From positions 90,730 to 154,729 of the forward strand of contig CAKPCL010000001.1 in the NCBI GenBank assembly GCA_934141605.1: a stretch of 64,000 bases of DNA, given 5' to 3'. This document shows positions 2,399 to 62,113 of the stretch, piece after piece. Every line of letters starts with the position of its first letter. The stretch's first letter is position 1. Under the pieces are notes generated by a model, which was given only the letters and a program-made list of their open reading frames with translations, searched no databases and was not told the origin of the DNA. Position numbers and translations under genes: made by a program. This DNA is from an uncultured Clostridia bacterium. GTDB taxonomy: Bacteria; Bacillota; Clostridia; TANB77; CAG-508.

Positions 2399-3070
2399 TT
2401 AAGTGCCATTATTTAGTTTTTCTATTCCTTGTATGCATCTTCTGTATTTTGGTTCATTTTCAACGCATGTTATTAGCGTTATTTTATTTTCTTTTGTGTT
2501 TTCTAAATCTTCCCAATCTGTATCTTTTATTATTTTGTTTTTAATAACTACATATGTTTTTTCAAAGTCATTATATTTATAAATGATTTCGTCTCCTTCT
2601 TGTAGTTCTTTAATTTTTGCAAAATAGTTTACTGCATATCCTCTATTATGTGCTGCCAGCCCTACATTTCCACTTTTTTTAGAGGTCTCTTCAAAATGAC
2701 CTACATATTTTTCCATTACTTCTTGTTCTGTGCCTTCAGATATGCTTGCTTCTAAAGATATTTTTGGTATTTTTATTGTCCAGTTTTTTTCTTTTGTTTG
2801 TATGTTGGAATAACTTTCTTCCTTTTTTGAATTTTCATTTTCTATATCTGTTTGATTATTTTGATTTTTGTTTTCTTCTTTTGTGTTTTGATTGATATTG
2901 TTTGAGCTTAATTCAACTAGTACTATATTTTTCTTGAATATATTAGAGAAAAGGTTAGCCTCTACTGTTTTAATTAAAGGTTGTATATTTAAATTTGTAA
3001 AAAAAATGTATATTAGTATTGTTATTATTAGGCTTATAATATCAACATATCTTTTGGTATAGCTAATCAT
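2399..3070 (-). CDS. Sortase family transpeptidase
   Basis: N-terminal signal anchor; catalytic-region motifs LAAHNRGY and TLITC; 223 aa. Confidence 0.75.
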   Translation of the reverse strand: MISYTKRYVDIISLIITILIYIFFTNLNIQPLIKTVEANLFSNIFKKNIVLVELSSNNINQNTKEENKNQNNQTDIENENSKKEESYSNIQTKEKNWTIKIPKISLEASISEGTEQEVMEKYVGHFEETSKKSGNVGLAAHNRGYAVNYFAKIKELQEGDEIIYKYNDFEKTYVVIKNKIIKDTDWEDLENTKENKITLITCVENEPKYRRCIQGIEKLNNGT

Positions 3071-3410
3071 TCATTATAATTCACCTGCCTTTTTGTTTAA
3101 TTGTAATTTGGATTTTGTTTTTTCGAAAAAACTTTTTTAGATTAAAAAACACTTTCGTGTATTTGATTTAAAATCTATAACTATGTTAACATGTTTTTTG
3201 GATTTTGTAAAGAACTTTTCATCGCAATTTTCGGCATTTTTCGACAGTTCTCTAAAAGTACAGATTTTAGTTGCTTTATTTCTGTACTTTTGGTTCTATT
3301 ATTTGTTATTTTTTAGTTTTTCTATTTCTTTTTTTGATAATTCTGTTATTTCCATTATTTGTTCTATTGTAAATTTCTTTTCTAACATTTTTTGAGCAAT
3401 TTTTATTTTA

Positions 3411-4262
3411 TTATTCTTTTCTCCGTTCTACTTTTCCGTACTTCTCTTCCGCTTTTGTATTCCGCTTTTCTTCACCAATTTTCAAAGCTTCTTCTTTCGC
3501 ATCATATATCATACTATTAACATCTGACTCCCACAAATCCCTCATGTCTTCTAAATATTGGGCTTCTTTACTGGCTGTGAAATATTTTATTTCTACTTCT
3601 GCTTCTTTTATTATATTATTTTTTGTCTTTGCCATTTCTATTTCCCCCTTATCCGTATCGTCTATTACAGCTAGCCATTGATTTAGTTTATTATCCATGT
3701 CTCGCTTCTTTTCTCTAAATTTTGGTAGCTGTATATAGTATTCTTTTACGATACTATTTACTTGATAATCCCTATGGTTATTTAAGACTTTTACAGTATC
3801 TAATATGTATTCATCAAAGCCAAATAAATTATAGTCTAATATGTAAATTGCTACTACTTCTTTTGCGTCTTGATACTGTTCTCCTCTTGAAAAGTTTCTT
3901 GATATTGTTTTTGCTTCATAAATGTCGTTTCTTTGTTCTAGATTTTTTCTGTCTTTTACTTGCATTTCTACATTTACTATCATGCCATCATTTAAAGTGG
4001 CTTGTATGTCTAATCTTCCGCCTTTTTCTCTTGTGCTTAATTGTTCTAAATTTACTTCTTCTTTTATTTCTATTTTCGTTATTTCTATTTTTAATATCGA
4101 ATTTAAGAAGTCTATTAAATATTTTTCGTTCCCTTTTCTGCTAAAAAATGCTTTGAATATTATATCATTTTTTAGATTTAATTTTTTTCTAATTCTTGCA
4201 TTTGGTATTTTTTGTGTCATTGTTGCCTCCTTTATTATAACAAGTACTTTTACAAAATTCAA
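3411..4262 (-). CDS. Rpn-family recombination-promoting nuclease / PD-(D/E)XK transposase-like protein
   Basis: 283 aa; N-terminal IFKAFFSRKGNEKYLIDFLNSIL and overall architecture typical of the TIGR01784/Rpn family; paralogous to 27105-27740 and 53495-54313. Confidence 0.65.
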   Translation of the reverse strand: MNFVKVLVIIKEATMTQKIPNARIRKKLNLKNDIIFKAFFSRKGNEKYLIDFLNSILKIEITKIEIKEEVNLEQLSTREKGGRLDIQATLNDGMIVNVEMQVKDRKNLEQRNDIYEAKTISRNFSRGEQYQDAKEVVAIYILDYNLFGFDEYILDTVKVLNNHRDYQVNSIVKEYYIQLPKFREKKRDMDNKLNQWLAVIDDTDKGEIEMAKTKNNIIKEAEVEIKYFTASKEAQYLEDMRDLWESDVNSMIYDAKEEALKIGEEKRNTKAEEKYGKVERRKE

Positions 4263-4456
4263 GCTTTTGTTATAACTTTTTAATAAATATTTTCTATTTA
4301 GTTAATATGTGCGTATTTTTCTTTTGCATACTAAATAGACCTGTACCTCCTTTCTTTTTTTATTTTTTGTTTTTTGGGTTTTGTTTTGATTTTAATTTTG
4401 ATTTCAAATTTTGAAATAATTAAATTTGATTTAAAATTTTTGAATTTTAAAATTTA

Positions 4457-4510
4457 AGCCACTTATATGGACTAAATAGAATATTCTATTTATATCACAT
4501 TAAGTGGCTA
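4457..4510 (-). promoter_or_regulatory. Conserved hairpin/palindrome upstream of the Rpn gene (putative promoter and operator)
   Basis: 9-bp stem agccactta/taagtggct enclosing the 18-bp perfect palindrome aaatagaatattctattt; on the minus strand TTTACA-17-TATAAA overlaps it; near-identical copy at 54655-54708. Confidence 0.5.
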
Positions 4511-4590
4511 TTGTAAATATTTTTTGAGTAATTTTATGTAGATTTTATCGCAAAAAACAACATTTTTTGACAAAGCTATAGAGTTCAGCT

Positions 4591-5700
4591 CTACAAGTAT
4601 AAAATTGGCCTAAAGCCTAGGCTATTGTAGTTAACAAAATTGCTGTAGTTATAGCGAATGCTAGTGTAATTGCTGGCGCTGTTGAAAGAGCCTCCACGAT
4701 AGACACAAGGATGATCAGAACGGTTTGAAGTTTCTGTTGTAAATTCATATACATTACTTGCCATGTCATATATATTACATTTTACATCTACTGTTGTTCC
4801 TGTAGAAGAAAAAGATGAACTTACTGGAGTTTGTCTTGAATATTTTGTATTTGTACAATTTTGTATAAATAATATTGCTGTATCCCATGCATAGCTATTT
4901 ATTAAATCACTTGTAAATGGATTTGTATTATCATACATATTTTGCGCTTGTGTTGCTGCATTTGGTTGTGTTATGTTATTCCATACTGTATCCGTTTTTA
5001 CTTCTGTTAATTTTCCACTTGTTGCATTTTTTCTTGCTTCATATCTTCCTATATAGTATCCTCCATTTGTTGCCACACTTGTTTTAAAATCTGTTATACT
5101 TTTGGCTATAGTATTTCCTTTACTTGCAGTTTCGCTAAAATATGTGTCAACAACTTTTTCACCTTGTGCTGTTTCATTTCCACTTTCATCAAATGTATAT
5201 CTATCTAGATTTATAGTTGTTGTTGAGCCATCTGCTTTTGTTATTGTTCCTACTGGTACCCATACAAACTGGCTTCCATTTGTTGCTGTTGCTTTTCCTT
5301 CTAAATCTACTGTTGCATCTTCTACTACTATTCCTTTATCTACTGTTGTTGCATTGCTTGTTGTAGCATCTGATACTATTTTAAATCCTGCTGGTACTGT
5401 AAAAAGATTTCCCTTCGTATCTTTCAATACTGTATTTTTTGTTTTGCTTAAGACTGTATTAATTTTATCACTTGTTAATTCTTCTGCAATGTATCTATTT
5501 ATTTCTTGTTCATATGTTCCTAATATTGTTGCTTGATTTTGCGTTGCTTCTTTACTTTTCTGTTTTGCTTTTTGTGCTTGTGAAAATAAGCCTTGATTTG
5601 TCAAGGTTTGTATTGATATTCCGGCTAATATTAGCAATAAAATTACAGTTATTACTAAAGCTACTAATGTAATTCCTCTTCTTTCGTTTATCTTTTTCAT
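4591..5700 (-). CDS. Prepilin-like-leader surface protein with C-terminal FGE-sulfatase (SUMF1-like) domain
   Basis: N-terminus MKKINERRG|ITLVALVITVILLLILAG (class III/prepilin-like but lacking Glu+5); C-terminal motifs YDMASNVYEF, RGGSF and GFRP resemble the FGE-sulfatase hallmarks GNVWEW/RGGSW/GFR; RBS aggagg. Confidence 0.6.
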   Translation of the reverse strand: MKKINERRGITLVALVITVILLLILAGISIQTLTNQGLFSQAQKAKQKSKEATQNQATILGTYEQEINRYIAEELTSDKINTVLSKTKNTVLKDTKGNLFTVPAGFKIVSDATTSNATTVDKGIVVEDATVDLEGKATATNGSQFVWVPVGTITKADGSTTTINLDRYTFDESGNETAQGEKVVDTYFSETASKGNTIAKSITDFKTSVATNGGYYIGRYEARKNATSGKLTEVKTDTVWNNITQPNAATQAQNMYDNTNPFTSDLINSYAWDTAILFIQNCTNTKYSRQTPVSSSFSSTGTTVDVKCNIYDMASNVYEFTTETSNRSDHPCVYRGGSFNSASNYTSIRYNYSNFVNYNSLGFRPILYL

Positions 5701-5848
5701 TTTTTCCTCCTACTTATGTCATTTTTATTATATTTTAACTTAGATTTTTTTATTTTTGTTCTTTTAAAACACATTGTTTTAAATTATTAAATAAAAAATA
5801 TTTTATTTTATAATTTTTTTGTTAGCATGCGTTAAGGAGAATTTTTGT

Positions 5849-6064
5849 ATGAAAACAAGAATTAAAGATTTAAGAGAAGATAAAGATTTAACCCAAAAAG
5901 AAGTAAGCCAATATTTAAACATATCCCAAGTAGCATATTCTTACTACGAAATAAATAAAAGAAGTATGCCATTAGAAATTCTTTCTAAATTGGCAGACTT
6001 CTATAATACAAGCACTGATTACATATTATATAGAACAAATGAAATAAAACCTTATAAAAAGTAA
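5849..6064 (+). CDS. XRE-family HTH transcriptional regulator
   Basis: 72 aa; helix-turn-helix LTQKEVSQYLNISQVAYSYYE; RBS aaggaga; divergent from the pilin-like gene; paralogous to 53202-53423. Confidence 0.7.
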   Translation: MKTRIKDLREDKDLTQKEVSQYLNISQVAYSYYEINKRSMPLEILSKLADFYNTSTDYILYRTNEIKPYKK

Positions 6065-6069
6065 AGAAA

Positions 6070-6167
6070 TGTCCAAATGGGACGGTTCTTTTTGGACATC
6101 GGTTCCAAATGGTCAAAATGTCCAAATAGAACCGTCCCATTTGGACAGAACCGTCTCTATTGGACAT
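6070..6167. repeat. Cluster of 29-bp GC-rich palindromic repeats (REP-like), units in both orientations
   Basis: TGTCCAAAtgggacggttctTTTTGGACA at 6070-6098, the inverted unit at 6119-6147 and a partial unit after it; lies between convergent gene ends; same unit at 43851-43919. Confidence 0.7.
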
Positions 6168-7668
6168 TAAGTTCAAAATAAAATTCAACGCCGTCTTCTT
6201 TATTGATAACTCCATATTTATTTCCGTAATTGTTCATTATAGCTTTGACAAATGCCAGTCCAATTCCGGTTCCTCCGTCTTCTCTATTTCTGGATTCATC
6301 TACTTTGTAAAATCTATTCCAAATACGGTTTAAATCTTCTTCTTTTATGTTGTCTCCGGTATTAAATACTTTTACACAAACTTTATTTGTATAAGAGTTT
6401 ACCTCATTTTTGATTCTTATTATTTTTTCTCCGTTTGGAGTTGGTTTTACATTTTTGATTGCATTTGTAATATAGTTTGTTATTACCTGTTCAATGTAAA
6501 AATCATCAGCAAATACATTAACATCTTCTGTGTTTTCCCATTCGACTTTAATGTTGTTTTCTTCTAACATAACTTGTGATTTTCTAATGACTTCTTTTTC
6601 AACTTCTACAATGTTGAATTCTTTGTCGTTAAATTCTCTTTTTCCATATTCTAATTTCATTAGTTCTAATAGCTGTTTTACAAGTCGGTCCATTTTATTA
6701 GTTTCGTCTAAGATTACTTCTGCATAGAACTTTTTGCTCTCTTCGTCAGAATTTACATTTTCAAGTAGTCCCTCACTGTATCCTTGTATTAATGCAATTG
6801 GCGTTTTTAATTCATGTGATACATCTGATATAAATGTTTTTCTCATTTCATCTATTTTTGATTTTTCTTCAATGTCTCTTTCTAGTTCTATATTTGAACT
6901 TCTTAGTTGTTTTATAGTTGTTTCTAGTTTTTCTGACATTGTATTTATACTTTTTCCTAAGTCATTTATTTCGTCTTTGGCGTCTGTTGTCTTGTACTTT
7001 TGACTAAAGTCTAGATTTGACATTTTTTTAGCAATAGTGTTTAGTTCTAGTATTGGTTCAGTGAATTTTCTTGATACTATTGATACCATTATTGCTGAAA
7101 TTAATATTGTAAATCCGGCCATTAACCATAAAAATCTATTGGATATTTTTACGCTGTCTTGTATAGATGTTACTGGTATTCTTATGTATAAAAAGTATCC
7201 GTTGTCTAATACTCCTGAAAGCATTATGTATGACATACCGTTTTTTATGTCTCTTTGTTTTTTTATAGAAAACTTGTCGTTTGATTCTAATTCTTTTCCT
7301 GTGGTCATATCTAATTTGTTCATTATATCGTTTATAGTTCCTATTGTTGATGAAAAGTTTTTATTTGTAGTATATATATTTATTCCATTATTATCTTTAA
7401 TTAAAATGTCAAAGTTGTTTCTTATTGCTATTTTTTCTAATTCTGTTGATATATCATTTTCTATACTTATATTTTTGTAGTGATTGTTTATTGTTTCATA
7501 TACAGATTTAAGTGTTTTTTCTTTACTGTATAGATAGAAATTTTCTAAAGCAAAATTATTTACAATTATTAAAAATACTATTATTAATAAAATTGTAAGG
7601 CTTAGTGTTAAAAATAGTTTTACTTTTACTGATGAAAATGCTTCTTTTATTTCTTTATTTAATTTCAA
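6157..7668 (-). CDS. Sensor histidine kinase
   Basis: TM segments, HisKA motif SHELKTPIALIQGY, HATPase_c motifs (GGTGIGL). Confidence 0.85.
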   Translation of the reverse strand: MKLNKEIKEAFSSVKVKLFLTLSLTILLIIVFLIIVNNFALENFYLYSKEKTLKSVYETINNHYKNISIENDISTELEKIAIRNNFDILIKDNNGINIYTTNKNFSSTIGTINDIMNKLDMTTGKELESNDKFSIKKQRDIKNGMSYIMLSGVLDNGYFLYIRIPVTSIQDSVKISNRFLWLMAGFTILISAIMVSIVSRKFTEPILELNTIAKKMSNLDFSQKYKTTDAKDEINDLGKSINTMSEKLETTIKQLRSSNIELERDIEEKSKIDEMRKTFISDVSHELKTPIALIQGYSEGLLENVNSDEESKKFYAEVILDETNKMDRLVKQLLELMKLEYGKREFNDKEFNIVEVEKEVIRKSQVMLEENNIKVEWENTEDVNVFADDFYIEQVITNYITNAIKNVKPTPNGEKIIRIKNEVNSYTNKVCVKVFNTGDNIKEEDLNRIWNRFYKVDESRNREDGGTGIGLAFVKAIMNNYGNKYGVINKEDGVEFYFELNVQ

Positions 7669-18255: not shown

Positions 18256-19029
18256 TTATTTAACTTCTCTACACTTTACTATTATTCTTTCTTTACTATC
18301 ATCTGTACATGTAATTAATGTAACTTCTTTTTTACCTCCTGTTAGCTGTGTTGTATCATTTCTGTTATTAGGCTCTACACTATGTATATCATATACCTCA
18401 TATGTAATAGTTCTTTTGGTTAAATCAGTTAATTTTACAATATCCCCGACTTCTAAAGTTGGTACTTTACTAAAAAATTTAGAATTTCTATAATTATGTC
18501 CTGCAATGCAGAAGTTTCCTATTTCGTTCGGATCATATCCATGAAATTTAATTGGTGATATTTTTAATAATTCTTCCGTTTCTTTTACACTTCCAGTTTC
18601 TCCTTGCAATACTGAATATGTAAGATTTATTTTTGGAATTTCTATTTTTGCAATAATTTTATATCTATATCCGCTTGATGATGTATATACTTCAGCTTTT
18701 TCGTTCATGCTAGCTACGGTTAAAGCTTCGCTTTCTTTTTCTTGTTCTTTATTATTATTTTCCTCTGTTTCGTCTAATATTACTAAAAGTATGTCATCTT
18801 CTAGTATTGTAGGGTCTTTTTCAGTAGATGTTAAAGTTTGATTTATCTTTTTTAGTATTTGTTTTGATGTTTGTTCCCCTTTATTTCTGTCATATTCTGC
18901 ATAGACATATAAAGAAGCTAGGACAATAACCAAAAAAATAGATATGATAAAATTAAATTTGTAAACTTTCTTTTTTTGTTTTAATTCTGGTGTTACATAT
19001 AATTTTTCGGTAACTAAAATTTGATTCAT
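18256..19029 (-). CDS. Sortase family transpeptidase
   Basis: Signal anchor, CIAGHNYRN and TLITC motifs; paralogue of 2399-3070. Confidence 0.75.
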   Translation of the reverse strand: MNQILVTEKLYVTPELKQKKKVYKFNFIISIFLVIVLASLYVYAEYDRNKGEQTSKQILKKINQTLTSTEKDPTILEDDILLVILDETEENNNKEQEKESEALTVASMNEKAEVYTSSSGYRYKIIAKIEIPKINLTYSVLQGETGSVKETEELLKISPIKFHGYDPNEIGNFCIAGHNYRNSKFFSKVPTLEVGDIVKLTDLTKRTITYEVYDIHSVEPNNRNDTTQLTGGKKEVTLITCTDDSKERIIVKCREVK

Positions 19030-27104: not shown

Positions 27105-27740
27105 TTATTCCATTTTTTCTTCAATCCAATATTTCTCAGCTAAATTATCTAATAATTTTATATATGGATTTTTGTTTTTTATTTTTTCTAATGTTTCATT
27201 TTCACAACCTTTTAAATATGATATCCACTCCTCTTTAGGAGTTAAGTTGTCTGAATTTTTAGGTTTGAATTTTAGTAGTTCTATTGTATACATTTCTAGT
27301 TCTTCTAGTCTAACATTTCCTTCGTTTGTTTTTATTTTTATTATTTTATCATAGTCTTTTGATGAAAAATAATTAAAGTCTATAAAGTTAATTGTTATTG
27401 TTTTTGCAAATTCTCTTTTGTCTTTGTATTCTAACTGATTTAAATGTATTTGTGCATAGTATATTAACATTTTTGTTTGCACATATATTCCGTCAATAAA
27501 TTGTATCCCTACATTTATTTCTTCATTTTCGTCTGTTTTTATTCTAACATCTGCAATCCCAAAATTTTCTTCTTTTGGAAGGTATTGTGATTTTTCTTTA
27601 AGATATGGGTTTAATGAAATATTTTCTATTGTGATATTTAGAATTGATTCTATAAGATTTTTTAGAATACTTAAACAATCCTTATTATTTAGTATTTTTC
27701 TAAGGACATAGTTACTATTTGAAATGAATTTTTTATTCAT
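27105..27740 (-). CDS. Rpn-family / PD-(D/E)XK nuclease-family transposase-like protein (short paralogue)
   Basis: 211 aa; similar in architecture to 3411-4262 and 53495-54313 (conserved D...E.K core around GIADVRIKTDENEEINVGIQF). Confidence 0.5.
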   Translation of the reverse strand: MNKKFISNSNYVLRKILNNKDCLSILKNLIESILNITIENISLNPYLKEKSQYLPKEENFGIADVRIKTDENEEINVGIQFIDGIYVQTKMLIYYAQIHLNQLEYKDKREFAKTITINFIDFNYFSSKDYDKIIKIKTNEGNVRLEELEMYTIELLKFKPKNSDNLTPKEEWISYLKGCENETLEKIKNKNPYIKLLDNLAEKYWIEEKME

Positions 27741-27917: not shown

Positions 27918-27955
27918 GACCGCAAAATTCGACATTTTAATTTTGCGGTCTTTTT
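27918..27955 (-). terminator. Rho-independent terminator (bidirectional)
   Basis: 12-bp perfect stem gaccgcaaaatt/aattttgcggtc with T-runs on both sides. Confidence 0.6.
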
Positions 27956-43850: not shown

Positions 43851-43919
43851 TGTCCAAATGTCCAAATGGGACGGTTCTATTTGGACAAAATGTCCAAACG
43901 GGACGGTTCTTTTTGGACA
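43851..43919. repeat. Cluster of 29-bp GC-rich palindromic repeats (two tandem units plus a partial one)
   Basis: tgtccaaatgggacggttctatttggaca (43859-43887) and tgtccaaacgggacggttctttttggaca (43891-43919); same family as 6070-6167. Confidence 0.7.
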
Positions 43920-49970: not shown

Positions 49971-50330
49971 TTATTCTTCTAATCCAAAACTTACCCCTAG
50001 TGCATTATTTATTTTGCTTATTATATTTTCATCTTCTATGTGTCCTATTTTTTCTTTTAATCTACTTTTGTCTATTGTTCTAATTTGTTCTGCTAATACT
50101 ACAGAATTATTTTTTAGACCGCATTTTTCTGAGTCTATTTCTATGTGTGTTGGTAGCTTTGTTTTATTTGTTTGTGATGTTATAGCAGCTGCAATTACAG
50201 TTGGGCTGTATTTATTTCCCATATCATTTTGTATTATTAAAACTGGTCTTATTCCTCCTTGTTCTGATCCTATAACTGGGCTTAAATCTGCATAAAACAT
50301 ATCTCCTCTTTTTATTATCATATTCTTCAC
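49971..50330 (-). CDS. mazF: Type II toxin-antitoxin system PemK/MazF-family endoribonuclease toxin
   Basis: [47 protein letters not shown] is EndoA/MazF-like; no antitoxin ORF upstream. Confidence 0.8.
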
Positions 50331-51135: not shown

Positions 51136-53097
51136 TCATTTAATTTTGTATCTTTGATTGTCTAGCTTATAATTTAATTCTATTTCTTCTTTGCTTAATA
51201 GCCTGTCATATATCCTTACTGATTTTATTTTTCCTCCAAAATAGCAATGGGCATCTGGCCATACATCTCCACCTACATAATAAGTTTCCCTATCTCTTCC
51301 TAAAGAGAATATATTTGCTTTCCAACCGCTTTCTTCCGCAGTATCTTCATTTATATAGGTATTTCCACCATCTACATATATATAATTTTTAGTCAAATCA
51401 CTTCCAAATGATATTGAATTTAATTGATTCAAATAAATTTTATTTTGAGGTATATTATATATTTTATTACCAAAATATACTGAATTGCATCTTGATGTAC
51501 CATCATTTATTTCTGATGCCCACAATAGATATGGTGGTGATGTTTTGTTTACTTGATGTCCTCCCAAGTCCAATATATTTCCATATTGTGATTTAGTGGT
51601 TTCTGAAATAATCTCAATTGTTGCACTGTGATTGTTTCCAATTCCATTAAATAATGGATTTGTTGTTGTCATATAATCATCTACACCATCAAATATTATT
51701 CCGTCGCTTATCCAACCACTGTCAGAATTATAATTAAAATTGTATAATGGCATATCATTTCCATTTCCACTTATATCTTTCCAAGTTGATGTTGTATTGC
51801 TATGTCCATTTCCTGTATTATTTATTCCGTCATAATGCACAACTAGTCCTTCTTGTATATATCCCGGATATGCGTTCACAGCATTTGTTATTATAACATT
51901 TCCTGCATTATCTTCTGCTTTCATTTTTATATTATAAGTTTGTGCATATGTTAAATTGTCAAATATGTAAAAATTGCTATTGTTCGTTACCCATGTTGTA
52001 CCATTATCTTTACTGAAATAATATTGTTTAATCTCACTTTTTTCATATTTTTCAGTAGCCTCTTTGTCAGTTGTTTTTCCAGTTACTTTTAAACTTGTTA
52101 TAGTATTAGTTTCAACTGTTGGTGTAAAGTCTTTTGGAGCTAGTTTATCTATGTTTGTTACATTGCCTGTGGCTGAACCGCCATAATTTTTTCCGTCGTA
52201 TAATGATACATAAATTTTTCCGTTCTCCGTAAAAACTTGACTTGCTGTGTCTTCCCAGTTCTTACCGTCTTTACTTGTTTGTAATTTATATCCTGTTATA
52301 TCTGTATTTAGTGTTGCTGTTACTGTTACAGCCTTATTTGTCCATGTTTCTTTATTAATCTCTGTTCCATCGACTGTATATGTAAATATTATATCTCCTT
52401 CTTCTATGCTTGGTACACTTCCAACTATTATATCTTTTGTTACTTCCGCTGTTTGCTTATTTTCTGCTATTGCTTCTACTTTTATACTATATGTTTTATT
52501 TTGTTTTAATCCTGTGTATGTATATGTTTCTTCTGTTGTTGTTTCTTTTTCTGTATACTTTTCTTCATTTTCTGCTTTTATATAGTATTTTATTTTTCCG
52601 CCTTGATTTCTCCATGTTTTTACTTGTACTGTTATTGAGTTTGTTGTTGATGTTGCATTTACTATTTTTATTATTGGTGGAAATTTTCCTTGTTCTCCTA
52701 TAAATTCTATCCCTTTTAGTGAAACCTTATATACATCTTTGTCTACTATTACATAAAAATATATTTCTATTTCTTCTCCGTCTTCCTCTGTACTTGTTTC
52801 TTCTACTGTTACTTCTTTTCCTATTTCTTTTAGCTCACCTATATTTTTATTTACATCTTCTCTTGTTGCTTTTATTATTTTTTCTGCACTTCCTGTTGAA
52901 TTTAGCATTTGTTGTGTTAATAGCTTTAAGTTTAGATATTCTGAAACTTGTGCTCTTTTATTTTCTAGTTCTGCTCTTTTGGCACTTTCAAATATTCCTG
53001 TTCCTGTCATTGCTTGTATTGATATTCCTGCCAGTATTAGCATTAATATTATTGTTATTACTAGTGCTACTAATGTTATACCTTTACTTTGTTTCAT
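51136..53097 (-). CDS. Prepilin-like-leader surface protein with FN3/Ig-like and C-terminal LamG (concanavalin-like) domains
   Basis: MKQSKG|ITLVALVITIILMLILAG leader (ATG 53097, RBS aaaggagg); middle FN3-like TYSIKVEAIAENK; C-terminal LamG signature SVRIYDRLLSKEEIELNY. Confidence 0.6.
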   Translation of the reverse strand: MKQSKGITLVALVITIILMLILAGISIQAMTGTGIFESAKRAELENKRAQVSEYLNLKLLTQQMLNSTGSAEKIIKATREDVNKNIGELKEIGKEVTVEETSTEEDGEEIEIYFYVIVDKDVYKVSLKGIEFIGEQGKFPPIIKIVNATSTTNSITVQVKTWRNQGGKIKYYIKAENEEKYTEKETTTEETYTYTGLKQNKTYSIKVEAIAENKQTAEVTKDIIVGSVPSIEEGDIIFTYTVDGTEINKETWTNKAVTVTATLNTDITGYKLQTSKDGKNWEDTASQVFTENGKIYVSLYDGKNYGGSATGNVTNIDKLAPKDFTPTVETNTITSLKVTGKTTDKEATEKYEKSEIKQYYFSKDNGTTWVTNNSNFYIFDNLTYAQTYNIKMKAEDNAGNVIITNAVNAYPGYIQEGLVVHYDGINNTGNGHSNTTSTWKDISGNGNDMPLYNFNYNSDSGWISDGIIFDGVDDYMTTTNPLFNGIGNNHSATIEIISETTKSQYGNILDLGGHQVNKTSPPYLLWASEINDGTSRCNSVYFGNKIYNIPQNKIYLNQLNSISFGSDLTKNYIYVDGGNTYINEDTAEESGWKANIFSLGRDRETYYVGGDVWPDAHCYFGGKIKSVRIYDRLLSKEEIELNYKLDNQRYKIK

Positions 53098-53132
53098 CTT
53101 TTGTGGTCCTCCTTTTATAATATCTATATCAA

Positions 53133-53168
53133 TTTTACACGCGTTGCGTGTAAAAGTCAATACGCGTA
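53133..53168. promoter_or_regulatory. GC-rich perfect palindrome (putative operator) between the pilin-like gene and its divergent XRE regulator
   Basis: ttttacacgcgttgcgtgtaaaa (10-bp arms) at 53133-53155 plus a second tacgcgta at 53161-53168, in an otherwise AT-rich intergenic region. Confidence 0.5.
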
Positions 53169-53201
53169 ATAAGAATATTCTATAATTTATATGGTGATTA
53201 T

Positions 53202-53423
53202 ATGAAACTAAGAATTAGAGATTTAAGAGAAGATAAAGATTTAACGCAAGCAAAACTTGCTGAATTATTAGGTTGTACTCAACAGACTTATTCTAGATAT
53301 GAGTCTGGTGAAATAACTATTGATATATATAATTTAGCAAAATTGGCAGAATTTTATGGAACTTCTTGTGATTATTTATTAGGAATAACTGATATTTCTA
53401 AGCCTTATAAAAAAACAAGCTAG
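53202..53423 (+). CDS. XRE-family HTH transcriptional regulator
   Basis: ~50% identical to 5849-6064 (MKLRIRDLREDKDLTQ...DYLLGITDISKPYKK). Confidence 0.7.
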   Translation: MKLRIRDLREDKDLTQAKLAELLGCTQQTYSRYESGEITIDIYNLAKLAEFYGTSCDYLLGITDISKPYKKTS

Positions 53424-53494
53424 AATATTTGAATTTTTATCATTTTTAATACTCTAGCTTTAAATTACTTTTTAAATATATTTTATATGTGCTT

Positions 53495-54313
53495 CTATTT
53501 AATTTTGTTATATTTTTCTATTTCTTCTTTACTGGCTCCTGTTATTCTTGATATTAAATCTATTGGTAATTTTTCTTTTAGCATATTTTTTATATGCTCA
53601 GTTCTAATTTGAAGCCTACCTGTATTAATATCTTTAATTTTTTCCTCTCTTATCATATCAAATACTGCTAACATATCACCTTCACCTCCTACATCTATGC
53701 TTTTTAAAATTTCTTTTGCCTTCTTCTCACCAACTATATTTAATGCTAAAACACTTGTTGCTTTATTTAAAAATTTTCTTTCTTCTTTAGTATATACTGT
53801 TGCATTTTTATTTATTTCAATATAAATTCTATTTAAAGTTTCACATAGCTTTTCTTCCGTTTTTGATTTTTCTATTAACATTATTTTACTTATTATTGAT
53901 TTTTCTTCTAACAACTCACTATCACTTATTTCATTAATGTCCAAAATGTTATATCTTGATAATTCTTGACCTTTATAGTTTCTCCATTTATGCTGTATGC
54001 TTCTTAAATCAAGTTTTGCGTTCCACTTTTCTTTTCCTGTATATAAGACTATTGGAATTACTAATGAATATTCATGCCATTTGCCTATATATTTGTTATC
54101 ATTTTCCACACTTTCTATTAAATTTAGCTCATATTTTAATATTCTATATGGCATTGAATAATCTATTTTTGTTTGATGCTCAATAAGAAAAAATACATTT
54201 TCATTTTTCATTTTATATACTACATCTGATTCTGAGTTTTTTAATTCTTCAGATATATAACTACTATTATATTTTTCAATTTCATTTTCTGTTATTTTTT
54301 CATTATCTTTCAA
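53495..54313 (-). CDS. Rpn-family recombination-promoting nuclease / PD-(D/E)XK transposase-like protein
   Basis: 272 aa; VFFLIEHQTKIDYSMPYRILKYELNLIES is typical of the family; paralogue of 3411-4262. Confidence 0.65.
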   Translation of the reverse strand: MKDNEKITENEIEKYNSSYISEELKNSESDVVYKMKNENVFFLIEHQTKIDYSMPYRILKYELNLIESVENDNKYIGKWHEYSLVIPIVLYTGKEKWNAKLDLRSIQHKWRNYKGQELSRYNILDINEISDSELLEEKSIISKIMLIEKSKTEEKLCETLNRIYIEINKNATVYTKEERKFLNKATSVLALNIVGEKKAKEILKSIDVGGEGDMLAVFDMIREEKIKDINTGRLQIRTEHIKNMLKEKLPIDLISRITGASKEEIEKYNKIK

Positions 54314-54654
54314 AACTCTATTTATTATTTTTACTGCATCTTTTTTCTTGTCTAGTGCTTTTCTACATATTTTGTCGTGTGGATTTTTTACTTCTAATAA
54401 TTGGTATTCTGCTTCATTATCGCTTAAATAATCTTGTTTATGTTTTTCATATTTTTCTTTATATAAGTTATATTCTTTAGTTGTAAATATTTCTATAATA
54501 GTTCCATCTCCTTTATTATAATATTTTTTGTTTTTATTGTCAATATTTATTTAACAGTTAATATAGTTTTTTTATCCCTCCCTTGCTTTGTCTTTTTAAT
54601 TTCTTGGGTTTTCTTTAGATTTAATTTTTGAATAAAATTTTATTGATTATAAAA

Positions 54655-54708
54655 AGCAACTTATGTGCTAAATAGAATATTCTATTTATATCACATATAG
54701 TTGCTATT
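54655..54708 (-). promoter_or_regulatory. Conserved hairpin/palindrome upstream of the Rpn gene, copy B
   Basis: Stem agcaact/agttgct (a compensated C-G to A-T change relative to copy A) enclosing the identical aaatagaatattctattt palindrome. Confidence 0.5.
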
Positions 54709-54793
54709 GTAAATAATTTTTTAACAATTTTATGTAGATTTCATCGCAAAATTCGACAAAAAAATGAGACAGTTTTGCACTGTCCCAAATCTC

Positions 54794-60223: not shown

Positions 60224-62113
60224 CTAGTATAGTGCTGTACGGAAACCTAAATAGGAATCTGTCTGTTTATAATTAAAATTAGCACGAAATGACATTGTAT
60301 TATAATTATAGTAATGGTATAGACTGCCTCCTCTGGTTGAAGTTGGTGCTGTTATAGAAGAACTTTTTTCTAATGTCCACTCAAATTCATTTCCTGCCAA
60401 ATCATATATATTTAGTTTATTTGTTTGTTCTGATGCTCCGGTCGTTAATAGTTGTTGATAATTTCCATCATTTGATGTTTTTGAAGATATTACATAATTA
60501 GTTGTATCTATATTGTATTCTGTCCATTTTGTTGTGCTTCTTGGATTTGTATTATATTTTCCTCTAACTAAAGTTAAACTATTATTTCTATAATTTCCCC
60601 AACCTGTGCAACTTGATTTTATCTCTTTTTTTGTTAAATCTGAATTCTTTTCTAAGAATTTGCATGTTAAGTCCCATTGTATCCCAAATAACAAACTACT
60701 TGTCTTGTTTGTACCTGTATCAATTTCACTTGATAGCTTTTGTGCTTGACTACATGTAACATAATTATATGGTATTTGATTAACTTTACTTACTGCTGTT
60801 CCTGTTGTTCCGCTACTGCTTGTCCTTGTTGTGTTACTTGCTGTTGATGTGGCATCTCCTATTTCATATCTTGATATCCAAAATCCACAATTTGTATATA
60901 TGCTACTTAACATTGTTTTGTATGTCGTTTGATATTCATTATATGTCAATCCACACCCGTTATTTAATTTTTTTTGTGTCTCAGTTAATCCTGTTGTGCT
61001 TGCTGTTACTAAAGTACTACCATCAATAGCATACCATTCATCATTCCAATCGCACCCTTGCCCTTCCTTTCCTTCTCTATAATCTGTTGCATATGATATT
61101 AAATCAGCTTTTATATTATCATAATCATCTGCCTTTGTTGCTCTTACAAATACTGTTTTTGGTACTTCAACCCATACCCATTCATTATCATTTTTATCTT
61201 TTACAACAAGTCCATTCTCTATAATATTCATTGTAGGAGACATACTTACGCTAAAACCTTCTGGAATTGTTACTGTATCACCTTTTACATCTTTGTATTC
61301 AGTTTCTTTTGTATATGCTTCAGACCACTTTTCTTCATCAATTACTACATATTGAACTTTTCCTTCTGAATTTTTAAAATATCCTTTGTATGTGTTTACA
61401 CTTTTCAAAAATTCATATTCTTTTTGGCTATTATTTAAAGTAATTCCTGTTGGTATTTGTGTTATTTGTTCTGTCTGTTCTATCCATATATATTGATTTG
61501 TGTTATTTACATTTATTTTTTCATCTTGTGTATTTGATATTACTATAGTTCCATTAGTTTTTCCTATGTAATAATAACCATCTGGTATTAAAATTCCTTC
61601 AATATATCTTAAATCTATGGTAGTTTCGTCTGGTTCTGTATAATCTGTATAATATGTTTCAGTAGAAGTGTCATTTTGAATTTCTATTCCTTTTACATAG
61701 AATATATTATGGCTATTTTCATTGATTATATATAAATCTGTATAGTCATTAGCATTTTCTTTGTCTTTTTTTACTTTTTCATAGTCTTTTCCATAGTTTA
61801 ATGTGATTCCTTTCATTGCTTCTAAATCAATTACATAAAAATCACCCGTGTCATTTTTGCTACTTAATACTTCTGATATTGAATCTATATTTGTATATTT
61901 TATTTCTGCTGGTAATTTGCCATACTCATTATAATATGTTGATATTTTATCTCTTAATAATTCTAAGTCATTGTAAAAGTTTGTTAGTTTGTTAATGTTT
62001 AGACTACTTTGTGTATTATTAATCATTATGCCTGTTAATATTAATAATGTTATAACTGTTATTACTAATGCTGTCATCGTTATTCCTTTTTCTTGTCTTA
62101 ATTTAAACTTCAT
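60224..62113 (-). CDS. Prepilin-like-leader surface protein with C-terminal FGE-sulfatase (SUMF1-like) domain
   Basis: MKFKLRQEKG|ITMTALVITVITLLILTG leader (ATG 62113, RBS aaggaga); C-terminal YDLAGNEFEWT, RGGSL, GFRTALY motifs. Confidence 0.6.
   Translation of the reverse strand: MKFKLRQEKGITMTALVITVITLLILTGIMINNTQSSLNINKLTNFYNDLELLRDKISTYYNEYGKLPAEIKYTNIDSISEVLSSKNDTGDFYVIDLEAMKGITLNYGKDYEKVKKDKENANDYTDLYIINENSHNIFYVKGIEIQNDTSTETYYTDYTEPDETTIDLRYIEGILIPDGYYYIGKTNGTIVISNTQDEKINVNNTNQYIWIEQTEQITQIPTGITLNNSQKEYEFLKSVNTYKGYFKNSEGKVQYVVIDEEKWSEAYTKETEYKDVKGDTVTIPEGFSVSMSPTMNIIENGLVVKDKNDNEWVWVEVPKTVFVRATKADDYDNIKADLISYATDYREGKEGQGCDWNDEWYAIDGSTLVTASTTGLTETQKKLNNGCGLTYNEYQTTYKTMLSSIYTNCGFWISRYEIGDATSTASNTTRTSSSGTTGTAVSKVNQIPYNYVTCSQAQKLSSEIDTGTNKTSSLLFGIQWDLTCKFLEKNSDLTKKEIKSSCTGWGNYRNNSLTLVRGKYNTNPRSTTKWTEYNIDTTNYVISSKTSNDGNYQQLLTTGASEQTNKLNIYDLAGNEFEWTLEKSSSITAPTSTRGGSLYHYYNYNTMSFRANFNYKQTDSYLGFRTALY

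Follow-up and report, generated by a model that had tools for sequence, protein, structure and literature searches.

The DNA analysed here (hereafter the window) comprises 64,000 nucleotides of an uncultured Clostridia bacterium (contig CAKPCL010000001.1, positions 90,730 to 154,729), and this report concerns two loci within it, named A and B, in each of which a gene for a pilin-like surface protein stands beside a divergent gene for a small XRE regulator and near a gene for an Rpn-family nuclease. The window has a G+C content of 27% and carries core chromosomal genes (rpoD, dnaG, adhE, ruvAB, aspS, minDE, rodA and PBP2); its source is an uncultured member of the gut Clostridia, whose closest named relatives are Clostridium sp. 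CAG:389, CAG:440 and CAG:575. The six open reading frames (ORFs) of the original prediction were all found in place. Locus A contains a PF12784 protein (Rpn_A, ORF 3411-4262, minus strand), a 369-aa protein (pilin A) and a 71-aa HTH_3 protein (XRE_A), and its neighbours are histidine kinase and response regulator genes and a sortase gene. Locus B contains a 653-aa protein (pilin B), a 73-aa HTH_3 protein (XRE_B) and a PF04754 protein (Rpn_B, ORF 53495-54313, minus strand), with aspS and Dus as neighbours. Coordinates of all features are collected in Table 1.

The three gene pairs differ strongly in how far they resemble each other. XRE_A and XRE_B are 52% identical over 71 aa (E 9e-24), in agreement with the value of about 50% predicted originally. 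The similarity of pilins A and B is confined to residues 1-50 (57%), and Rpn_A and Rpn_B have no pairwise similarity by BLASTP (best E 4.8) and belong to different Pfam families, PF12784 (PDDEXK_2) and PF04754 (Transposase_31), respectively. The Rpn gene is located downstream of the pilin gene at locus A and beyond the XRE gene at locus B, on opposite sides of the pair. BLASTN between the two loci finds shared DNA only in the coding 5' ends and in the Rpn 5' region, and no common flanks. The description of the two loci as the same trio repeated was thus correct as to the six genes but overstated, since similarity of the pilins, similarity of the Rpn proteins and gene order do not follow it. 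The window also contains a third pilin-leader gene, with neither an XRE nor an Rpn gene beside it, and a third Rpn-like gene, with neither a pilin nor an XRE gene beside it.

The XRE–pilin pair is retained in other species. There are 642 homologues of XRE_B, many at 80-95% identity. Two of them, P0281 (83% identical), which is present on 181 contigs and takes its name from Clostridium sp. CAG:575, and P0329 (84%), represent two other species whose loci (L115-L124) share the synteny of locus B: aspS-HD-PemK-YdcC-pilin-XRE-(NUDIX)-Dus-RodA-MinE-MinD. The divergent neighbour of the XRE gene in these loci lies on the opposite strand and carries the pilin leader. No Rpn gene is found in the P0281 and P0329 loci: in one of the two species the next gene after XRE is Dus, in the other a NUDIX gene precedes Dus, and the window lineage has Rpn_B and an extracytoplasmic function (ECF) sigma/anti-sigma pair at the same spot. 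These differing occupants show that gene content at this spot varies between species, and the Rpn-free loci amount, as judged from gene order, to an empty site. In the P0116 species, which is widespread in the human gut, the XRE–pilin pair lies beside rpoBC, again with no Rpn gene, and the pair was also found in L015, L088 and L038. On this comparative evidence, the actual conserved unit is the XRE gene together with its divergent modular pilin gene.

The contexts of the pair do differ (histidine kinase/response regulator and sortase at A, aspS and Dus at B, rpoBC in the P0116 species), and the copies carry different passenger domains; both points would fit a small mobile cassette with its own regulator, with or without the Rpn gene, as was proposed in the original prediction. 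We regard such a cassette as highly improbable. Locus B is syntenic in at least three species, the window loci lack common flanks, neither pair in the window has an integrase or transposase gene as a neighbour, and the phage and plasmid collections give no relatives beyond a weak match to the LamG domain.

The intergenic region of locus B contains a perfect palindrome, also written as TTTTACACG-N5-CGTGTAAAA, which fills the 17-nt spacer and overlaps the -10 element of the predicted pilin B promoter. When the intergenic regions of the window and the two other species are aligned, TTTTACACG-N5-CGTGTAAA, the adjoining GTCAATAC and the -10 element of the XRE promoter are conserved in all three, and the pilin side diverges except for the ribosome-binding site (RBS) and the start codon. 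Promoter-like sites are no rarer than expected by chance in the AT-rich DNA of the window, and for this reason the call of the pilin B promoter rests on its conservation. XRE_B is predicted to repress both pilin B and itself. An XRE dimer would bind the palindrome in the pilin promoter; from the position of the palindrome in the spacer and -10 region, the bound dimer should occlude RNA polymerase, and the pilin gene would be repressed. The palindrome also abuts the back-to-back -35 element of the XRE promoter, an arrangement which would allow autoregulation. A candidate operator of similar geometry is found at locus A (Table 1). The pair of the P0116 species has a different operator-like repeat, TAACCT-N5-AGGTTA, in two copies.

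Table 1. Features of loci A and B and comparator genes in the window
Feature	Coordinates	Strand	Description
XRE_B	53202..53423	+	73 aa, helix-turn-helix (HTH) only; HTH_3 64.6 bits (cut-off 23)
XRE_A	5849..6064	+	71 aa from MKTRIKD; HTH_3 51.5 bits (cut-off 23); 52% identical to XRE_B
Operator-like palindrome, locus B	53133..53155	.	TTTTACACGC-gtt-GCGTGTAAAA; perfect 10-nt arms; in spacer/-10 region of pilin B promoter
Pilin B promoter (predicted)	53132..53160	-	TTGACT-17-TAAAAT, 10/12 consensus matches; -35/-10 retained in orthologous loci
Candidate XRE_A operator	5763..5783	.	TTTAAAACA-cat-TGTTTTAAA; 9-10 nt arms and 3-nt spacer, geometry as at locus B
Modular pilin B	51136..53097	-	653 aa; three Fn3-like domains and C-terminal LamG/ConA-like domain, the head being residues ~440-653
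Modular pilin A	4591..5700	-	369 aa; leader RG followed by ITLVALVITVILLLILAG; passenger domain distantly related to FGE-sulfatase
Third modular pilin	60224..62113	-	629 aa; leader KG followed by ITMTALVITVITLLILTG; FGE-sulfatase-like C-terminus; comparator
Rpn_A	3411..4220	-	269 aa, start MTQKIPN; C-terminal tail lost by frameshift; start as called in L105
Rpn_B	53495..54499	-	PF04754 78 bits; TIGR01784 54.7 bits with ATT-start extension (cut-off 52.1)
Third Rpn-like gene	27105..27740	-	PF12784 65.5 bits, TIGR01784 37.6; between penicillin-binding protein (PBP) and response-regulator genes; comparator
Rpn C-terminal tail, conserved	3299..3427	-	..IKIAQKMLEKKFTIEQIMEITELSKKEIEKLKNNK (..IAKKLL..ELTELT.EEI..), out of frame with Rpn_A
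Rpn_A 5' region	4221..4575	-	proximal promoter 4262-4234; hairpin 4457-4509 (core 4473-4492); TTTACA-17-TGaTATAAA 4517-4489
Rpn_B 5' region	54500..54765	-	proximal consensus promoter 54543-54515; hairpin 54655-54705; TTTACA-17-TGaTATAAA 54713-54685
Intrinsic terminator of upstream anti-sigma gene	54765..54787	-	left edge of Rpn_B unit

Concerning the pilin-like proteins, pilin B starts at MKQSKG and not at the TTG at 53160, the identical start being called in a 94%-identical homologue (P0001). Its leader reads MKQSKG followed by ITLVALVITIILMLILAGISI and is of the class III type (KG followed by ITLVALVITIILMLILAG, with Ala5); the N-terminal pilin-like module comprises residues 1-137. The AlphaFold model of pilin B (predicted local distance difference test, pLDDT, >85 across residues 40-410) has an N-terminal helix of about 60 residues, a small alpha/beta domain up to residue 137 and then three Fn3-like domains, for which Foldseek gives tandem FnIII matches (E 7e-10). 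Pfam matches are PF00041 and PF25059 (fn3; fn3 E 5e-5, just below the cut-off) and Laminin_G_3 (E 6e-6, 26.8 bits, marginally under the cut-off of 27.6). Pilin A has no FGE-sulfatase match of its own; it is 33% identical over 141 aa to the C-terminus of the third pilin, whose PF03781 (FGE-sulfatase) match scores 19.6 bits, under the cut-off of 23.3. As in the definition of modular pilins (Raynaud et al. 2021), a pilin module is thus combined with a domain not specific to pilus biology, the domain matches being marginally sub-threshold. More than 1,600 homologues share the N-terminal half of pilin B, with varied C-terminal domains. The N-termini of pilins A and B, K/RG followed by ITLVALVIT(I/V)IL(M/L)LILAGISIQ, resemble a prepilin signal, and all three window pilins begin with a short, positively charged stretch that ends in Gly and leads into some 21 hydrophobic residues. 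Among Pfam families, N_methyl (PF07963) ranks first for pilin B (16 bits) and is a weak match for pilin A (14 bits), the alignments starting at residue 1 or 7.

When one genome per species was scanned, at least 429 genes proved to have this leader, with several in each genome, and 80 of these loci were fetched for a neighbourhood survey (966 kb in total). In 8 of the 80, including L018, L041 and L053, the leader genes lie 2-4 kb upstream of PilB/PilT/PilC. The order of the pil operon in those three loci is PilM/N-like, one to three short pilins, an A24 prepilin peptidase, two minor pilins and PilB/PilT/PilC; the peptidase (PF06750, 103.9 bits) is followed by T2SSE and T2SSF. The short pilins (142-172 aa) have the leader KG followed by ITLIALVITIIVLLILAG, which matches the window leaders nearly residue for residue, and that of L053 scores 20.4 bits for N_methyl. 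These presumptive major pilins of the clade (operon coordinates: L053 7661-10925; L041 8001-10642; L018 7989-10357) have Ala at mature position 5, and a single minor pilin is acidic there (Asp). In L002, T2SSE, T2SSE and T2SSF genes are found 2.3 kb from a pilin gene resembling pilin B. Because the same leader is found on short pilins within pil operons, the window leader is, by sequence comparison, the class III pilin signal of this clade. As the pilins of the clade lack Glu5 and score just under the N_methyl threshold, standard pilin models miss them. Looking at the regulator in the same survey, an XRE gene of this kind lies upstream of only about 5 of the 80 leader genes; from this frequency, XRE control appears to mark a subset of orphan modular pilins.

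The pilin genes differ between strains. Contig L104, which comes from another sample, matches the window at 96.8% identity over a stretch that begins within Rpn_B and takes in XRE_B, the intergenic region and pilin codons 1-226; beyond codon 226 the contig is unrelated to the window, with a Flg_new-type C-terminus and a different downstream gene. The sample that yielded contig L002 contains a copy of the window at 99.9% as well, and the pilin gene of L002 shares the 5' 1 kb (the first 340 codons) with pilin B at 92.7% DNA identity. In the P0281 species, the partner of an identical XRE is a 318-aa protein with an extra gene in one sample (L115) and a 497-aa protein in another (L116), with 46 residues in common; in the P0329 species, again with an identical XRE, the pilin partner has 419 aa or is truncated to 327 aa depending on the sample (L120 vs L123). 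The original prediction of variable surface-protein genes with a dedicated divergent XRE gene is therefore borne out by the mosaic allele of L104 and by the different partners in L115 and L116. The comparison of strains and samples that it proposed gives the same answer: the loci are not invariant, and pilin 3' parts and partners differ. On the sequences compared, the surface variation is real and is seen between strains. As the comparison shows, recombination exchanges the 3' part encoding the head from strain to strain, and the 5' part, the XRE gene and the operator stay unchanged. Simple-sequence repeats and silent pilin cassettes were looked for within the window and none were found.

Three further observations concern pilin genes of other species. 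The extra 309-aa gene of the CAG:575-like species (L115/L117, 2972-3901) lies between the XRE and pilin genes and has an ordinary N-terminal membrane anchor; L116 has one 497-aa pilin gene. In homologous pilin genes of another gut species (L010 6001-6045; proteins P0003, P0028 and P0068-P0074), a (CA)n tract lies within the 5' coding region, between an RBS-proximal ATG and the leader. The ATG has a strong RBS and the conserved hairpin GAAAGCCTTGAGGCT is found upstream of the tract. Samples differ in tract length, so that the products, of 701, 703, 705 and 710 aa, start in either of two frames; in L002, the leader sequence is identical but the tract is just (CA)2. By its sequence, the tract looks like a slipped-strand phase-variation switch. 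In the same contig (L010 10427-14106; P0070 species), an integrase and an excisionase gene are found beside a cyclic-oligonucleotide-based anti-phage signalling system (CBASS; SMODS, SAVED and E2), 2.3 kb downstream of the putatively phase-variable pilin gene.

It was originally suggested that the Rpn nuclease drives this variation. Under that explanation the trio would be one system, in which breaks made by the Rpn endonuclease promote RecA-independent replacement of pilin head cassettes. The XRE–pilin pairs adjoin an Rpn gene twice in one window (chance ~0.011), the mosaic alleles have their breakpoint inside the gene, a second gene shares the 1-kb 5' end at 92.7%, a PDDEXK_2 gene follows the pilin gene in L086 as at locus A, and overexpressed E. 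coli Rpn proteins raise RecA-independent recombination (PMC5350276). All this is outweighed, in our view, by the fact that the Rpn-free XRE–pilin loci of the two other species are equally hypervariable, so that Rpn fails both as a part of the module and as the driver of its variation. In addition, the Rpn proteins come from different families and their genes flank the pair on different sides, Rpn_A is without its C-terminal tail and Rpn_B without a canonical start codon, the nearest Rpn_A homologues are elsewhere in the genome, the window holds no silent cassettes, and RpnA cuts DNA without sequence specificity, with roles in toxin–antitoxin and phage defence favoured (PMC5350276, PMC10400941). 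We consider a single trio system very unlikely. A related form, in which adjacency is functional because Rpn breaks stimulate head replacement by homeologous recombination with paralogues sharing the 1-kb 5' segment, and in which the shared hairpin/operator co-regulates the Rpn paralogues, deserves very little credence. The variation is, as far as these comparisons go, not tied to Rpn.

Concerning the nucleases themselves, Rpn_A matches TIGR01784 with 89.7 bits (cut-off 52.1) and PF12784 with 137 bits. Putative catalytic motifs were read by eye from the translations: PHD..ESDVVYK..LIEHQ in Rpn_B (PHD only in its upstream extension) and KNDIIFK..RLDIQ..VEMQ in Rpn_A. The PD-(D/E)XK residues of RpnA are D11, D63, E82 and Q84 (PMC5350276). 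Rpn proteins are non-specific endonuclease toxins with intragenic antitoxins and act in phage defence (PMC10400941, PMC5350276); their genes are multi-copy and patchily distributed, with gain and loss of single genes without terminal repeats (PMC10400941). PADLOC has no model that matches the Rpn proteins of the window.

Homologues of Rpn_A at 80-91% identity are numerous, mostly on contigs of 1-4 kb. The two that were looked up (85-86%; within L107-L114) are flanked by trxB-trxA and a PBP gene, and neither a pilin nor an XRE gene is close to them. Homology between window 4575->3285 and L107 4639->5924 (81.6% over 1,311 bp) delimits the Rpn_A unit as a ~370-bp 5' region, the ORF and the conserved tail. 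The claimed linkage of Rpn genes to pilin-like genes is not supported by the survey: the 966 kb around the 80 pilin loci contain 8 Rpn-like genes, of which one is adjacent to a pilin gene (L086) and three more lie 1.6-1.8 kb or two genes away (L043, L075 and L065), with no clear enrichment toward the centre. Assemblies break inside Rpn_B (L001, L103 and L104 end at window 53841, 53693 and 53787, respectively), and a fourth contig, L106, breaks off at window 4361, within the element that precedes Rpn_A; the four contigs come from three samples. The small contigs and the assembly breaks suggest multi-copy or polymorphic Rpn genes, as near-identical paralogues or strain polymorphism. Because of the empty-site loci, the Rpn_A homologues elsewhere, the unlinked third Rpn and third pilin genes and the survey, we separate the Rpn genes from the XRE–pilin pair; by sequence, each Rpn gene is an independent single-gene unit with a 5' region of its own, roughly 370 bp long, in which a long hairpin/palindrome and promoters are found.

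Another explanation would join the XRE gene to the Rpn gene, as controller or antitoxin-like partner of a defence nuclease, and give the pilin gene no part in the system. The convergent genes XRE_B and Rpn_B have 71 bp between them, the Transposase_31 Rpn gene of L043 is likewise convergent with an XRE-like gene, and the XRE proteins match generic PADLOC HTH models of defence controllers (capH, control protein). These matches are weak, though, and are to a generic HTH domain. Moreover, the XRE orthologues retain the pilin partner and the operator without any Rpn gene, Rpn_A homologues are present without XRE, the pilin gene separates XRE from Rpn at locus A, and the Rpn palindrome described below is unrelated to the XRE operators. 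An XRE–Rpn partnership is accordingly hard to credit.

The 5' regions of the two Rpn genes show what they have in common. A block of 131 bp upstream of both (window 4425-4555 and 54627-54751) is 82% identical (E 2e-32), and the same block accompanies the Rpn_A homologues in other species and in another context (L107-L114). It contains a hairpin of about 50 nt with the invariant core TAAATAGA-N4-TCTATTTA, whose outer arms covary in a compensatory way between the copies; at Rpn_B, this 51-nt hairpin or palindrome has its core TAAATAGAATATTCTATTTA at 54669-54688 and overlaps TTTACA-17-TGaTATAAA. Four variants of the hairpin have folding energies of -20.6 to -26.6 kcal/mol (z-scores -5.5 to -7.9), and a U-rich tract comes after each. 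The core occurs only twice in the window. At both genes, a proximal consensus promoter comes after the hairpin. From these features, the hairpin could serve a common repressor as its operator, or could be a terminator insulating the toxin gene from read-through. Scans of the window with Rfam (gathering thresholds) and for tRNAs gave no matches; the element thus belongs to no known RNA family, and the window lacks a tRNA integration site. Small ORFs conserved between the two Rpn 5' regions were looked for in both, and none were found. The Firmicutes LexA/SOS consensus is GAAC-N4-GTTC, and a LexA/SOS box was rejected as an interpretation of the palindrome, since half-sites and spacing are unlike this consensus. 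A metagenome scan with the 20-nt core returned 8 environmental contigs which match only the 20-23-nt palindrome, with no flank homology, and these were taken as chance matches.

As to the start of Rpn_B, the frame is open for 62 codons upstream of the TTG at 54313 (54314-54541, minus strand); this extension encodes the PHD motif and contains no ATG, GTG or TTG. The ATT at 54499 lies 8 nt after the GGAG of the RBS AAAGGAG, and the extended protein covers positions 1-273 of the TIGR01784 profile. The probable start, from this context, is ATT 54499 (or an ATA). An out-of-frame ATG directly after the RBS opens a 4-codon ORF.

The conserved C-terminal tail is fused in frame in relatives of 299-301 aa. 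As in the window, it is detached in L107 (by another frameshift, 5780-5900) and in L113 (by an in-frame stop, ~5770-5900), its sequence remaining intact, and no clear RBS is visible for a separate tail. A programmed -1 frameshift (A_AAA_AAG) joining the L107 ORF to the tail was rejected: there is a stop just upstream in the tail frame, and the lesion in the window differs. Where ORF and tail meet, L107 further carries a 12-nt (KKEG) repeat in tandem, reminiscent of the 4-aa repeats reported for RpnS. By analogy, the uncoupled tail recalls the concept of RpnS, a small intragenic antitoxin made from the variable C-terminal region.

A motif, TGTCGAA(N0-13)TTGCGATRAA, recurs just after terminators, at window 3218-3246, 4544-4553, 27925-27934 and 54740-54758 (all on the minus strand) and at L002 5630-5655. 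The sites lie upstream of Rpn_A and Rpn_B (at the latter as TGTCGAATTTTGCGATGAA, 54758-54740), in part upstream of the third Rpn-like gene (TGTCGAATTTTGCGGTCGA), downstream of Rpn_A ahead of the sortase promoter, and upstream of the L002 pilin gene. Its presence on both sides of the Rpn_A unit might, on sequence grounds, be the mark of an insertion junction.

Considering the evidence together, we think it likely that locus B and its counterpart at locus A are XRE-repressed, hypervariable orphan modular pilin loci, and that the Rpn genes are defence or toxin units acquired as neighbours in this lineage. This explanation builds on the observed gene content, sequence similarities, synteny, operator conservation, mosaic alleles and Rpn independence. 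A prepilin, once expressed, would be processed by the prepilin peptidase of the clade. Being bulky and lacking Glu5, it would take its place at the tip of a type IV filament and act there as an adhesin for a glycan or ligand, by analogy with PilB and PilC of Streptococcus sanguinis; after the pilin module, the stalk and adhesive head would be the three Fn3 domains and the LamG lectin-like domain in pilin B, and the FGE-sulfatase-like domain in pilin A. The Rpn units, as self-contained toxin or defence nuclease genes, would have been acquired beside pilin loci, where gene content varies between species.

Several points weigh against this explanation. XRE repression, peptidase processing, tip display and adhesin function are all steps that we infer. 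The candidate operator of locus A is a single AT-rich palindrome of a type common here, with no orthologous loci for footprinting, and points only weakly to regulation by XRE_A. The low frequency of XRE genes upstream of leader genes in the survey is a further point. In the gene-order permutation, the adjacency of both XRE–pilin pairs to one of the three window Rpn genes is nominally non-random (P ~0.011), the test being post hoc; we infer that insertion-tolerant boundaries of variable loci (a hot spot) caused the double adjacency. The remaining points concern the pilins: the PF07963 scores of pilins A and B are below the cut-off (21.2) and the third pilin has no match; mature position 5 is Ala in all three (I-T-L-V-A or I-T-M-T-A), so that Glu5 is missing; the model of the N-terminal module (pLDDT 85) has no significant Foldseek match in the PDB, leaving the pilin fold unconfirmed; and no pilus machinery genes are found within the window itself.

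The same four points, together with the location of most such leader genes outside pil operons, support the possibility that the proteins are ordinary surface proteins on an uncleaved N-terminal signal anchor and that XRE regulates an adhesin or enzyme gene. We judge this to be unlikely. The short pilins of the pil operons carry an almost identical leader, the predicted N-terminus, a helix of about 60 residues that leads into a small alpha/beta domain, is pilin-like, and modular pilins with lectin heads are established (PMC9934059, PMC8179133). The tip pilins GspK and S. sanguinis PilA likewise lack Glu5 (PMC9934059).

The likely explanation, an XRE-repressed modular pilin with Rpn neighbours, relates to several known systems. 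In S. sanguinis, the modular type IV pilins PilB and PilC carry a vWA module and a concanavalin A-like lectin module, respectively (PMC8179133, PMC9934059). The window proteins resemble them in combining a class III-type N-terminal signal, a short pilin module and a grafted adhesive module, in the LamG/ConA-like lectin superfamily head that pilin B has in common with PilC, and in the bulk of the subunit, which would be expected at the filament tip. They differ in that their genes lie outside a pil operon, those of A and B each paired with a divergent XRE gene, in the leader without Glu5 (as in the presumptive major pilins of the clade), in the stalk of three Fn3 domains in pilin B and in the strain-hypervariable head.

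With about 70 aa and HTH_3 only, the XRE proteins are like small XRE/Cro repressors (phage Cro/CI-like, restriction-modification C proteins and RstR), as is the predicted inverted-repeat operator over back-to-back promoters, with autoregulation implied; their best NCBIfam match is the RstR family (50 bits, cut-off 80). Unlike phage, restriction-modification and toxin XRE proteins, they have a pilin/adhesin gene as partner at a conserved chromosomal locus, and no sensor domain or antirepressor was identified.

The Rpn (YhgA-like) family is recognised in the matches to TIGR01784, PF04754 and PF12784 and in a putative D...D...E-x-Q signature (for Rpn_B, PHD, SDV and IEHQ; for Rpn_A, NDI, LDI and VEMQ), and further in the multi-copy, patchy single-gene units without terminal repeats and the variable C-terminus with short Lys/Glu-rich repeats. 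Three traits depart from known Rpn genes: the conserved tail is disconnected from the nuclease ORF by a frameshift or stop (window, L107 and L113); by sequence, members of two Pfam families appear to share a 5' hairpin and promoter region; and Rpn_B has an apparent ATT start. Gene conversion at Neisseria pilE/pilS and switches made of simple-sequence repeats offer a parallel in the conserved 5' and variable 3' part of the pilin gene, the mosaic alleles between strains and the (CA)n tracts in homologues of other species. In contrast to pilE/pilS, the window has neither silent cassettes nor repeat tracts, no guanine quadruplex (G4) or recombinase element was identified, and the variation seen is that between strains.

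Other features of the window were noted in passing. There are two sortase genes (2399-3070 and 18256-19029), the first of which immediately follows the Rpn_A unit; pilin A does not end in an LPXTG-type motif and so has no apparent link to the adjoining sortase. A solitary gene for a PemK/MazF-type toxin (49971-50330) has no obvious antitoxin ORF adjoining it and occupies the same position in all related loci (L115-L124). The product of 50386-51036 matches GerS (NCBIfam) with 59 bits against a cut-off of 175 and is YdcC/LolA-like in relatives; the match was not taken as evidence of sporulation. G+C-rich inverted repeats built on GTCCAAATGGGAC(GG) are found at 6064-6170 and 43852-43886, that at 6070-6153 having 20-nt arms (TGTCCAAATGGGACGGTTCT / AGAACCGTCCCATTTGGACA). 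They are placed between convergent genes and ahead of ruvA, and probably represent a family of bidirectional terminator repeats.

For the biology of these organisms, the analysis does away with a connection of Rpn nucleases to surface variation that is tempting but lacks support; if the Rpn adjacency were functional after all, it would represent a nuclease-assisted system of antigenic or adhesive variation in uncultured gut Clostridia. The Rpn genes of the window are natural variants in which a putative antitoxin tail is uncoupled and a 5' hairpin is common to two Pfam families, and they offer leads on toxin silencing. The pilins of the clade lack the near-universal Glu5 and are consequently missed by standard detectors, with hundreds left unannotated. 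What the loci would represent is a conserved mini-repressor and operator guarding a hypervariable, lectin-tipped modular pilin in abundant uncultured Clostridia of the human gut (CAG-type lineages). Adhesion of individual strains to host or dietary glycans may plausibly be determined by the XRE–pilin module, which is also a plausible target of immune or phage selection.

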